From: a virus
Virus genome (UHGV): UHGV-0090469
DNA length: 18,665 nucleotides
Reading direction: 5' to 3' (one strand)
This document shows, one piece after another, positions 6,001 through 9,000 of the stretch. The position numbers were made by a program. Every line of letters begins with the position of its first letter. Within the stretch, counting starts at the first letter, position 1.

Positions 6001-9000
6001 CTATATGCAAATTGAAACAAAAGAGATGGTGATCTTTCTAAGAGATGATGGAATCTCCCTTCAGTATCCCGATGGTCAATGCGCTGGATATGGGATAGAT
6101 GGGAATATGCTGATTTTTATGGGACAGAGTTGCGAACTGTTCCCAACTAAAATCATTTTGCACGATCAGCGCACTACGAACTTTACCCACAAATAGTCAG
6201 GTAATGAATCCTGATATAAAGACAGGTTGATAAATCAGTCTTCTACGCGCATCGCACGCGCACATCAAAGAGAGTCTTTCAGTAGTGAGCCTGGGTGATG
6301 CCGTTAGGTTGCGTTTACCTCTCGGGCGGCATTGCCGTGCGACAGGCTCACGCCTAAAAGGAAATATTCCATGAGTAACAAAATCATTACGCTATCTGGC
6401 GCTGCTAATGAAGTGCTTTATGCGCTGTTTTTCCGTGGCGCGTTGCTGTCTGGTGATCTGCCTTCTAAATCTGGCACAGCCGAATTGCGCGAGCTTGGTT
6501 TTGCTGAAACCAGACACACAGCAACTGAATACCAGAAAGAAAATCACTTTACCTTTCTGACATCAGAAGGGCAGAAATTTGCCGTTGAACACCTGGTCAA
6601 TACGCGTTTTGGTGAGCAGCAATATTGCGCTTCGATGACGCTTGGCGTTGAGATTGATACCTCTGCTGCACAAAAGGCAATCGACGAGCTGGACCAGCGC
6701 ATTCGTGACACCGTCTCCTTCGAACTTATTCGCAATGGAGTGTCATTCATCAAGGACGCCGCTATCGCAAATGGTGCTATCCACGCAGCGGCAATCGAAA
6801 CACCTCAGCCGGTGACCAATATCTACAACATCAGCCTTGGTATCCAGCGTGATGAGCCAGCGCAGAACAAGGTAACCGTCAGTGCCGATAAGTTCAAAGT
6901 TAAACCTGGTGTTGATACCAACATTGAAACGTTGATCGAAAACGCGCTGAAAAACGCTGCTGAATGTGCGGCGCTGGATGTCACAAAGCAAATGGCAGCA
7001 GACAAGAAAGCGATGGATGAACTGGCTTCCTATGTCCGCACGGCCATCATGATGGAATGTTTCCCCGGTGGTGTTATCTGGCAGCAGTGCCGTCGATAGT
7101 GTGCAATTGATAATTATTATCGTTTGCGGGTCCTTTCCGGCGATCCGCCTTGTTACGGGGCGGCGTCCGCGCAGATTCTCGCTATTTATGAAAATTTTCT
7201 GGTTTATGCCATTTCCGTTCTTCTTCTTGTTTACTCATTGTTTTTGTTAAAAACGTCCTCTCTCCAGAAAGGAAATGCTGAGCAAGGAAAACGGAAGTTT
7301 ACCGTTGATTGTTTCCTTTCTCTGTTTTTTGCCAGGAGTAAGCCATGGAGGTTAACAAAAAACGCTTATCCGAAATTTTCGGGGTAAGCGTCCGAACGAT
7401 TCAGAACTGGCAGGAGCAAGGTATGCCGGTTGTCCGCGGTGGTGGCAAAGGTAATGAGGTTCTCTTTGAATCTGCTGCTGCAATCGAATGGTACAGTGCG
7501 CGCGATGCAGCTATAGAAAATGAAAAGTTGCGGAAGGAAGTTGAAGATCTCCGTATCGCTTCTGAGTCCGATCTTCAACCTGGCACGATTGAATATGAGC
7601 GACACCGACTTACGCGAGCTCAGGCTGACGCTCAGGAATTAAAAAATGCAAAAGAGTCCGCTGAAGTGGTGGAGACCGCATTCTGCACGTTCGTGCTGTC
7701 GCGGGTAGCCGGAGAAATCGCCAGCATTCTCGATGGAATACCTCTGTCGGTTCAGCGGCGCTTCCCGGAGCTGGAGAACCGACATATTGATTTCCTCAAG
7801 AAGGACATCATTAAGGCCATGAACAAGGCAGCTGCGCTGGATGAAATGATACCGGGGTTGCTGAGTGAATATATCGAACAGTCAGGTTAAGGGGCTGCAG
7901 CACTCTGCGCGGGCGGGGTTACGTTCGCTGTACCGGCCGCAACCGCAAACAGCAGTTGAATGGGCAGATGAGAATTATTATCTCCCGAAAGAGTCTGCCT
8001 ACCAGGAAGGGCGCTGGGAAACACTGCCATTTCAGCGTGCAATTATGAATGCGATGGGTAATGACTATATTCGCGAGGTGAATGTCGTTAAATCGGCTCG
8101 TGTCGGCTACTCAAAAATGTTGCTCGGCGTTTACGCATATTTCATCCAACATAAACAGCGTAACTCCCTAATATGGTTACCAACCGACGGTGATGCTGAA
8201 AACTTCATGAAGTCTCATGTAGAACCGACCATTCGTGATATTCCGACGTTGCTGGCGCTTGCTCCCTGGTACGGTAAAAAACACCGGGACAATACGCTGA
8301 GCATGAAGCGTTTCTCGAATGGTCGTGGTTTCTGGTGCCTGGGCGGTAAGGCTGCAAAAAACTACCGTGAAAAATCAGTTGATGTGGCTGGCTACGACGA
8401 GCTCGCCGCTTTCGATGATGACATCGAGAAAGAAGGTTCTCCCACCTTTCTGGGTGATAAGCGTATTGAGGGTTCTGTATGGCCGAAATCCATTCGCGGA
8501 TCTACACCGAAAGTCAAAGGTACGTGCCAGATAGAAAGAGCTGCTAAGGAGTCTGAACATTTTCTTCGGTTCCATGTTCCATGCCCACACTGTGGGGAAG
8601 AGCAGTATCTGAAATTCGGTGATAAAGAGACACCATTTGGCTTCAAATGGTCTCCGGGAGAACCTGCCAGCGTTTACAGGAGCTGGAATTTCTGGAGGCC
8701 AGGTATATTTGTGATGAAACAGGTATCTGGACACGAGACGGCCTTAACTGGTTTTCTTCATCCGGTACCGAAATTGAACCTCCTGACAGCGTTACATTCC
8801 ACATCTGGACCGCATATAGCCCGTTCACAACCTGGGTGCAGATCGTCAAGGACTGGATAAAAACAAAAGGTGATACGGGTAAGCGAAAAACTTTCGTTAA
8901 CACGACCCTGGGCGAAACGTGGGAACCGAAAATAGGTGAACGACCCGATGCTGAAGTTTTAGCGGAACGAAAAGAGCACTTTGAAGCGTCTGTGCCGGAG

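Follow-up and report, generated by a model that had tools for sequence, protein, structure and literature searches.

A mobile cargo gene beside cos, phi80 orf66, appears to carry a diverged copy of the segment of tail protein J that triggers HepS

Introduction

Two prophage proteins, HepS and TaiEcA, have been described in separate papers as acting on the C-terminal part of the siphophage tail protein J, and the locus analysed here links them. This locus lies in the UHGV virus genome UHGV-0090469, whose 18,665 nt were analysed at full length (hereafter the window), and contains an open reading frame (ORF) of 242 codons that stands directly before the cos site. The ORF is the counterpart of a phage phi80 gene known as gp49 or orf66 and is referred to as orf66 throughout.

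HepS is an anticodon nuclease of the HEPN type from the Gifsy-1 prophage (Sargen et al. 2026, PMC13043305; PDB 9OIK). A 32-residue peptide of lambda J (residues 902–933), derived from the central straight fibre (CSF), is enough for both binding and activation of HepS, and F924 is its key residue (PMC13043305). The F924S form of J retains binding to HepS and loses activation, and the J proteins of Gifsy prophages, which have isoleucine at the F924 position, are silent toward HepS (PMC13043305). Residue Q922 of J forms a hydrogen bond with HepS, and HepS binds monomeric J, which would block trimerization of J (PMC13043305). Phage SECphi27 is unrestricted even though the CSF of its J activates HepS, and the authors suspect a resistance factor (PMC13043305).

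TaiEcA of phage phi80 is gp52 and corresponds to positions 44,365–44,979 of JX871397 in Table S3 of He et al. 2024 (PMC11364771). By itself, TaiEcA prevents phages HK106, HK544 and HK578 from assembling tails, Tai alone confers defence from a plasmid, and mutants that escape Tai have been mapped to the C-terminal region of J (PMC11364771). A second protein, AtiEcA, is produced from the Q-dependent late operon and spares phi80 from self-inhibition; among single deletions of orf62, orf64, orf65 and orf66, only that of orf64, which encodes AtiEcA, lowered the titre of phi80 (PMC11364771). Lysogens of phi80 without taiEcA, in which orf66 was kept, lost protection against HK106, HK544 and HK578 (PMC11364771).

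The gene studied here shares this locus. Its product has 98.3% amino acid identity to phi80 gp49/orf66, and the gene occupies the same position, after taiEcA and atiEcA and directly before cosQ. The phi80 counterpart is also called ‘ORF x171.28’ and is listed by NCBI as ‘Fur-regulated protein’. At its 3′ end the 242-codon ORF matches, in reverse complement, the primer A66-2c used for deletion in PMC11364771, a match that identifies this ORF as the orf66 of He et al. 2024. Likeness to the Tai/Ati system extends to J, as Tai escape mutations affect the C-terminal region of this protein and orf66 carries a stretch resembling that region; orf66 differs from the system in that it is not required for phi80 defence or self-immunity (PMC11364771) and in that most of its occurrences lack Tai. 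We are thus dealing with a catalogued entity without known function, previously examined only for a role in self-immunity and with a negative outcome, whose neighbours form a published system; the anatomy of the locus is solid. New with respect to PMC11364771 and PMC13043305, neither of which mentions them, are the apparent copy of the J trigger in orf66 and the HepS fold, with its Rx4H motif, that is predicted for Tai.

Results and Discussion

A J-like segment in the orf66 protein

The sequence-only reading of this DNA that preceded our analysis had seen no recognizable family in the 242-residue protein. This description is correct in the strict sense of Pfam domains and incomplete otherwise, as PHROG 17079 matches the protein from end to end (E 8e-170), NCBI already holds a name for it, and there is a marginal match to Phage_Tail_Tip (PF09327). 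The latter is the only Pfam match of the protein, covering residues 119–151 and scoring 23.4 bits against a cut-off of 22. It is not noise, because PF09327 matches 29 of 62 family members (best E 4.7e-13) and because BLASTP aligns residues 83–142 of the orf66 protein with residues 1063–1129 of phi80 J (33% identity, E 3e-4), a protein of 1192 residues in which Pfam detects PF24801, PF13550 and PF09327.

The J-like stretch can be followed to the HepS trigger through a chain of alignments that runs from lambda J 902–933 (F924) to phi80 J (...PFVIQNGQTF(1113)IRASFIQ) and on to the orf66 protein (...ELIRNGVSF(126)IKDAAIANG). Residues ~116–132 of the orf66 protein align with the trigger core in the pattern G-x-x-F-[IM]-x-D, with F126 at the position of F924, and position 81 of the Pfam profile ties F126 to F1113 of phi80 J. 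Phenylalanine is predominant at this position in the 92 family proteins in which a crude regular expression finds the motif. Hence the orf66 protein appears, on alignment, to bear a J trigger segment in diverged form, with the phenylalanine kept and an equivalent of Q922 missing. Unlike the HepS trigger of lambda J, this putative copy is embedded in a non-structural winged-helix protein. The full architecture of J (hub domains, FNIII domains including FNIII-1, shaft and receptor-binding domain) is absent, as is a position in the tail-gene cluster: orf66 has one fifth of the size of J and is sited between Rz and cos, at the opposite end of the late operon.

We tentatively favour an explanation that we rate as possible while short of an even chance, namely that orf66 encodes a late-expressed mimic of J, which would decoy J-sensing systems of the HepS/Tai type in the host or in rival prophages. 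Part of the probability falls to functions other than those weighed in this article. The disordered middle segment, the precedent of a variant trigger that binds HepS without activating it, and the fast shuffling of J-like inserts all suggest this proposal, which draws on resemblance to J and on analogy with HepS. During lytic growth the orf66 protein would offer a look-alike of the J CSF, disordered on its own, and HepS/Tai-type sensors of the host or of rival prophages would bind it. The look-alike would either fail to activate these sensors or titrate them, so that nascent J would be left free to trimerize and tails would get built. Rapid reshuffling of the J-like inserts would then represent matching to different sensor variants, and the winged helix and C-terminal helix, which a decoy leaves unexplained, might serve oligomerization or anchoring.

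Several points weigh against this proposal. Phage phi80 that lacks ati and keeps orf66 is still strongly self-inhibited by TaiEcA (PMC11364771), which argues that orf66 is no effective decoy for its own TaiEcA, and deletion of orf66 left the titre of phi80 unlowered (PMC11364771). A peptide homologous to the trigger could equally activate HepS-type nucleases. The resemblance to J is weak (33% over 67 residues) and includes no equivalent of Q922, and there are minimal family members without any J-like insert, so that the core function may lie elsewhere. Finally, orf66 could be expressed in the lysogen, given the crudeness of the promoter scan described below and the chance that a promoter is concealed in the conserved leader.

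For the family as a whole, it is conceivable, if rather doubtful, that its members are widespread late mimics of structural proteins that copy the trigger of HEPN sensors, either as silent decoys or as adaptors that rewire the nuclease response. A gene that has been catalogued for thirty years as a ‘Fur-regulated protein’ of unassigned function yet seems to carry a diverged HepS-trigger segment would, if sensors bind its J copy, make a common family of prophage cargo a mimic of a defence trigger. This would provide a direct handle on how siphophages escape from, or manipulate, J-sensing immunity, would represent the first trigger-mimic counter-defence against sensors of a virion protein, and could supply a resistance factor of the sort suspected by the HepS authors in the escaping phage. 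Within the phage collection searched, SECphi27 itself gave no match to the orf66 protein at E 1e-5. Should the mimic idea fail, orf66 would be an ordinary, dispensable and fast-shuffling moron.

Protein architecture and family mosaicism

An AlphaFold2 model of the orf66 protein was built from a 62-sequence alignment. The N-terminal domain is confidently modelled (residues 10–80, predicted local distance difference test score (pLDDT) > 90) and is followed by a helix at residues 98–114, a low-confidence beta-rich stretch at 118–170, a confident long helix at 181–230 and a short terminal helix. The long helix looks like a coiled coil in the model, and the order of helix, beta-rich segment and helix is reminiscent of a short fibre shaft. 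The protein is a module-shuffled cytoplasmic protein composed of a winged helix, a stretch homologous to the J CSF and a C-terminal helix.

The winged-helix domain resembles the fold of MarR/PadR-type regulators and has the features of a winged helix-turn-helix. It differs from these proteins in that its ~80 residues are modelled without flanking dimerization helices and in that the putative recognition helix (residues 33–42, GTAELRELGF) is acidic, with two acidic residues and one basic, within a domain of negative net charge. No sequence similarity to MarR/PadR-type families was found for the orf66 protein in Pfam, NCBIfam or PDB sequence searches, and the sequence search of solved structures gave only a chance match (E 1.3). 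The viral fold library returned only stand-alone, uncharacterized winged-helix proteins; stand-alone copies of this domain are common in phages. A CcdA-like match in NCBIfam was discarded as noise, being far below threshold (15.6 bits against a cut-off of 100).

The family is extremely mosaic. In the same slot the winged helix can be exchanged for FNIII or other N-terminal modules, and minimal members consist of the winged helix and a PGG-tailed helix without a J-like insert. A tail of the form ...PGG(V/L)(I/L)W... at the C-terminus is family-wide: a C-terminus of the PGG type is present in 98 of 149 unique family proteins, and G234 is kept in at least 90% of members. Recombination breakpoints fall inside the gene, and evolution is faster outside the winged helix (dN/dS, the ratio of nonsynonymous to synonymous substitution rates, of 0.3–0.8 versus about 0.1).

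One variant bears directly on what the slot encodes. Two loci (L106, 6001–6807; L107, 2787–3593) have, in the position of orf66, after Tai and Ati, behind the same leader and before Nu1, a gene for a 268-residue protein. Its N-terminus is homologous to the FNIII-2 domain of J (phi80 J 775–863, E 9e-9) in place of the winged helix, and its C-terminal ~90 residues align with residues 151–242 of the orf66 protein (65% identity over the matched stretches). Judged by these alignments, the variant resembles a ‘mini J tail’ that has a gene to itself, and its occurrence in the very same slot suggests that the slot encodes look-alikes of the J tail.

Coding status and origin of the gene

The plus-strand ORF of 242 codons that had been called from the sequence is upheld by an ATG start, a good Shine–Dalgarno sequence (AAAGGAAA, 7–8 nt 5′ of the ATG), homologues and dN/dS. 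A large protein collection contained 658 homologues (E <= 0.001), and the gene was present in 99 of 5426 complete Escherichia coli genomes. Pairwise dN/dS against homologues of equal length was 0.12–0.69; by region, it was about 0.05–0.15 in the N-terminal domain and 0.3–0.8 in the remainder. We conclude that orf66 is a genuine coding gene under purifying selection. Its placement directly before cos was also right, since cosQ and the cohesive-end sequence follow the stop codon at distances of 28 nt and 58 nt, with a lambda-type Nu1 beyond. Table 1 lists the features of the locus.

Positions 5302–7165 of the window are 97.4% identical to the right end of phi80. Within orf66, every difference from phi80 falls in the N-terminal domain (6371–6619, dS 0.20) and the remaining 477 nt (6620–7096) are identical; this confinement points to recombination within the gene, with the junction where the domains meet. 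On the 3′ side of orf66 the window resembles the cos–Nu1 region of HK225/mEp237-like phages, not that of phi80. A further phi80 gene, gp50/orf65 (99 aa), which is antisense to the 5′ end of orf66, is shrunk here to a 51-codon ORF (6392–6547, minus strand), and gp50/orf65 is probably not a real gene.

Table 1. Features of the orf66 locus in the window and the corresponding genes of phi80
Feature	Coordinates	Strand	Remarks
orf66, 242 codons + stop	6371..7099	+	ATG start; homologue of phi80 gp49/orf66
N-terminal winged-helix domain, residues 1–83	6371..6619	+	most conserved module of the family
J central-straight-fibre-like stretch, residues 83–151	6617..6823	+	BLASTP to phi80 J; PF09327
Trigger-peptide-like core, SFELIRNGVSF126IKDAAI	6716–6766	+	putative; within the J-like stretch
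C-terminal long helix (181–230) and short helix	6911..7096	+	AlphaFold2 model, pLDDT 84–96
Conserved leader, ~125 nt	6246..6370	+	small hairpin (GCGC...GCGC) and long hairpin 6276–6360
taiEcA, 204 aa, HepS-like HEPN tail-assembly-inhibition defence protein	5371..5985	-	phi80 gp52
atiEcA, 76 aa (orf64, ‘ORF x171.8’), late-expressed counter-defence	5966..6196	+	phi80 gp51; genetics in PMC11364771
Fur-box-like palindrome TGATAATTATTATCG	7108..7122	.	9 nt after the orf66 stop; one mismatch to TGATAATNATTATCA
cosQ, GGGTCCT	7128–7134	+	aligned to annotated phi80 cosQ
Cohesive-end sequence GGGCGGCGTCCG	7158–7169	+	aligned to the phi80 12-base sticky end
Lambda-type Nu1	7345–7890		Pfam E 1.6e-95
phi80 gp52, 204 aa		-	annotated hypothetical
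phi80 gp51, 76 aa		+	‘putative Fur-regulated protein, ORF x171.8’
phi80 gp49, 242 aa		+	‘ORF x171.28; similar to N15 gp59’; cosQ comes next

The Fur label and the cos flank

The palindrome that follows orf66 was evaluated against the 7-1-7 consensus of the Fur box, TGATAATNATTATCA, for which 0.04 sites with at most one mismatch are expected per window. Related loci totalling 1.36 Mb contain 44 sites that deviate from this consensus by no more than one mismatch, and every one of them is 0–964 bp downstream of the family gene, where cargo meets the packaging genes. The palindrome recurs in L003, L007, L013, L014, L021, L038, L109 and other loci, where it precedes a lambda-type cos, a DUF1441-type module or other modules; it also follows the FNIII variant that has no winged helix, and it stands beside cosQ in HK225, which has no family gene. 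The palindrome is a conserved element of the cos flank and not of orf66. Candidate roles are Fur binding beside cos, a roadblock or a promoter element.

Upstream sites were sought in the 98 loci that encode the N-terminal domain of the family (15 species genomes, 80 viral contigs and phage records, brought together by alignment of this domain). The regions upstream of the gene in these loci contained no Fur-type site better than two mismatches, and most had four to seven; a 19-bp Fur consensus had no site within three mismatches anywhere in the window. Regulation of orf66 by Fur was accordingly rejected, the only Fur-box-like site being downstream and belonging to the cos flank. Nothing on the origin of the ‘Fur-regulated’ name was found in the literature searched. 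We take the ‘x171’ names to denote a Fur titration clone, in which case the name of orf66 most probably derives from proximity to the palindrome. A correction of the annotation is due whatever the function, because the ‘Fur’ label rests on a palindrome of the cos flank.

These observations bear on whether orf66 encodes a DNA-binding regulator, in which the winged helix would bind the palindrome near cos or the gene's own leader while the J-like and coiled-coil parts would oligomerize. We judge this quite unlikely. The fold does resemble that of MarR/PadR-type regulators, the winged helix is the most constrained part of the protein, and a palindrome that is perfect or nearly so follows 9 nt downstream. 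However, the putative recognition helix is acidic in a domain that is net negative and without MarR dimerization helices, and the palindrome fits the Fur consensus and is present both in HK225 without the gene and after the FNIII variant without the winged helix. Moreover, FNIII or other N-terminal modules can replace the winged helix in the same slot.

Beyond Nu1, the gene for the large terminase subunit (7865–9750) is split over two frames by a small deletion relative to near-identical loci, with the break near 8677 and with residues 1–271 of phi80 A in frame 2 and 282–640 in frame 1. The prophage of the window is probably defective for packaging. Packaging inhibition by Listeria TerI was considered as an analogue of a cos-adjacent defence and set aside, being a different, Listeria-phage system.

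Leader RNA and expression

Situated between Rz and cos, orf66 is downstream of atiEcA and shares the late strand with it and with Nu1. In lambdoid phages the late transcript must cross the region from Rz to cos in order to reach Nu1 and the genes up to J, and a consensus scan of the plus strand found no terminator-like site between ati and orf66. Together these observations place orf66 in the Q-dependent late transcript, made along with J. The same type of scan, which is crude, found no sigma-70-like promoter at 6197–6370.

The 385 bp that precede orf66 had been taken for an AT-rich intergenic region within a simple divergent pair of genes. This description did not hold up: the region contains atiEcA and the conserved leader, and its G+C fraction is 0.45, or 0.49 in the 174 bp that are truly non-coding, against a window mean of 0.52. 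Most family loci have kept the leader, usually with an intrinsic terminator immediately upstream of it, and it is also found before an FNIII-type variant (P0146). Its long hairpin has a minimum free energy z-score of -3.4, and in the outer stem CUUUCAG pairs with CUAAAAG, just before and into the Shine–Dalgarno sequence. In the leader alignment 96% of the cells are paired, covariation is restricted to the inner helices, and many one-sided changes give G-U pairs, which fits an RNA of the plus strand only. Rfam had no match to the leader at E up to 1. The structure suggests translational control or a processing site, and possibly an unannotated cis-regulatory RNA.

A second explanation is that orf66 is a defence gene expressed from the prophage, whose J-like stretch and helices would co-fold with the J of an incoming siphophage into dead-end hetero-oligomers, its own J being too different. 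Homology to the J CSF combined with a predicted long coiled-coil helix would suit such a protein, as would the identity of just 33% between the J-like segment and phi80's own J. The gene also sits in a known defence hotspot with Tai adjacent, its evolution is diversifying and mosaic, and interference with tail assembly is a documented strategy (PMC11364771). We nevertheless consider a defence of this kind unlikely, given that phi80 lysogens with orf66 and without taiEcA were unprotected against HK106, HK544 and HK578 (PMC11364771), that the gene lies within the late operon with no sigma-70-like promoter between the upstream terminator position and its start, and that none of the PADLOC models matched the orf66 protein at E up to 0.1.

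Tai and Ati, the neighbouring genes

The minus-strand neighbour had been labelled HEPN-like from its sequence, and aptly so, as it encodes TaiEcA and the model of TaiEcA matches HepS. The published mass of 3xFLAG-TaiEcA, 26.1 kDa, equals the 23.37 + 2.73 kDa computed here. From its modelled HepS fold and an invariant, intact Rx4H motif, Tai, too, may be a nuclease that J activates. Tai looks related to HepS, and both seem to sense one and the same part of J; TaiEcA probably recognizes the J segment that HepS does. Neither sequence nor profile comparison shows any similarity of the orf66 protein to Tai or Ati.

The atiEcA gene overlaps the start of tai by 20 nt. AtiEcA was also considered as a mimic of J or of the orf66 protein and rejected, as it has no BLASTP similarity to phi80 J and an hhalign probability of 0.05 to the family profile. 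On the other side of tai, between a terminator distal to Rz (5064–5081) and tai, lies a 67-codon ORF (5099–5302, plus strand) that matches PHROG 9518 (E 5e-39) and is outside the phi80-derived block, which begins at 5302.

Partner of Tai or independent cargo

From the divergent arrangement, orf66 had been proposed as either the partner of the HEPN-like protein or an independent moron, with a survey of their co-occurrence among the suggested checks. We searched the 98 loci with a Tai profile built from 19 Tai clusters. A Tai homologue adjoins the family gene in 19 of them, always divergent and 370–530 bp upstream, and these 19 loci belong to two lineages, the phi80 type and a type comprising L009, L011, L061 and L075 in which Tai is 28% identical. 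The two genes therefore vary independently. The same Tai protein (63% identical to TaiEcA), accompanied by an 87% identical Ati, occurs with orf66 in one locus (L102) and without it in L100/L101 and nine similar places, and a Tai and Ati pair with 49% identical Tai lies in a tail-gene hotspot without orf66 (L103). In five loci that were reached through three distant Tai proteins (47–63% identical), an Ati-like match stands beside every Tai match, although it is degenerate in L104 and L105. This constant association, together with the genetics of PMC11364771, indicates that the real partner of Tai is Ati and not orf66. The partner proposal thus fails on the low frequency of Tai adjacency, on the existence of Tai and Ati without orf66 and on the unaffected titre of phi80 after deletion of orf66, whereas the proposal of an independent moron is supported by variation independent of Tai/Ati and by the several packaging modules found downstream.

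The gene that follows the family gene was of several types: HNH + TerS + TerL in 35 loci, a lambda-type Nu1 in 24 and another type of TerS in 11. In E. coli Nissle 1917 (L108, NZ_CP022686 449708–451436) a tai-ati-orf66 block, with orf66 100% and tai 99.8% identical, precedes a DUF1441-type packaging module (small terminase, ClpP/MCP fusion). HK225 has the same cos flank without orf66, and no lambda record in the phage collection matched the orf66 protein at E 1e-5. Thus the family gene always occupies the last or near-last cargo position ahead of the packaging genes, irrespective of the type of terminase. The variety of downstream modules, the Nissle block and HK225 lead us to conclude that orf66 is cargo of the Rz-to-packaging hotspot, mobile in its own right, in many enterobacterial lambdoid, HK97-like and N15-like prophages, and neither a packaging accessory nor an obligatory partner of Tai.

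A conserved packaging or head accessory tied to cos, the finding that would have spoken against cargo, is effectively refuted by the same distribution. Its appeal is positional, as the gene is always last or near-last before the packaging genes and here abuts cosQ. But it stands before at least four kinds of packaging module (lambda Nu1/A, HNH + TerS + TerL, other TerS and DUF1441-type), is absent from HK225, matched no lambda record of the phage collection at E 1e-5, is dispensable for phi80 titre (PMC11364771) and has no similarity to any packaging family.

We also considered whether orf66 could be a third, modulatory component of Tai/Ati, a bait or adaptor that would present a J-like trigger to Tai while the winged helix would sense other signals. 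Adjacency to Tai in two unrelated lineages, the trigger-like segment with its conserved phenylalanine, and movement of the tai-ati-orf66 block as a unit, with 100% identity, into different backbones (Nissle 1917) are in keeping with such a role. Even so, it is very unlikely: Tai is adjacent in just 19 of 98 family loci, identical Tai and Ati occur without the gene, as does a related pair (49% Tai) in a tail-region hotspot, and plasmid-borne Tai defends alone, with no phenotype reported for deletion of orf66 (PMC11364771). A looser functional link between orf66 and Tai remains plausible because orf66 seems to carry a diverged form of the segment through which J is bound by HEPN sensors of the HepS type.

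The Nissle 1917 block is relevant to the reported resistance of this strain to lambdoid phages, which has hitherto been attributed to a repressor gene; a published transcriptome study of the strain contains nothing on orf66. At least 21 loci (L026–L047 and others) have further cargo 3′ of the family gene, 0–1700 bp downstream, comprising a 75-residue or ~380–500-residue protein and a 217–266-residue protein. Pfam scans of these ~380–500-, 217–266- and 75-residue proteins returned no families and hence no guilt by association. The gap to the family gene is only a few bases, and this cargo is probably translationally coupled to it.

The second Tai lineage differs from phi80 at the ati position. 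In L009 the order is a Tai-like gene (6922–7467, minus strand), an ORF of 111 residues (7544–7879, plus strand) that has no Pfam family, and the family gene (8001–8789); the 111-residue ORF, at the ati position, is a candidate for a non-homologous anti-Tai. A motif similar to part of this ORF, GGG[KR]IVI.NW.D, is fused inside one family member (P0138).

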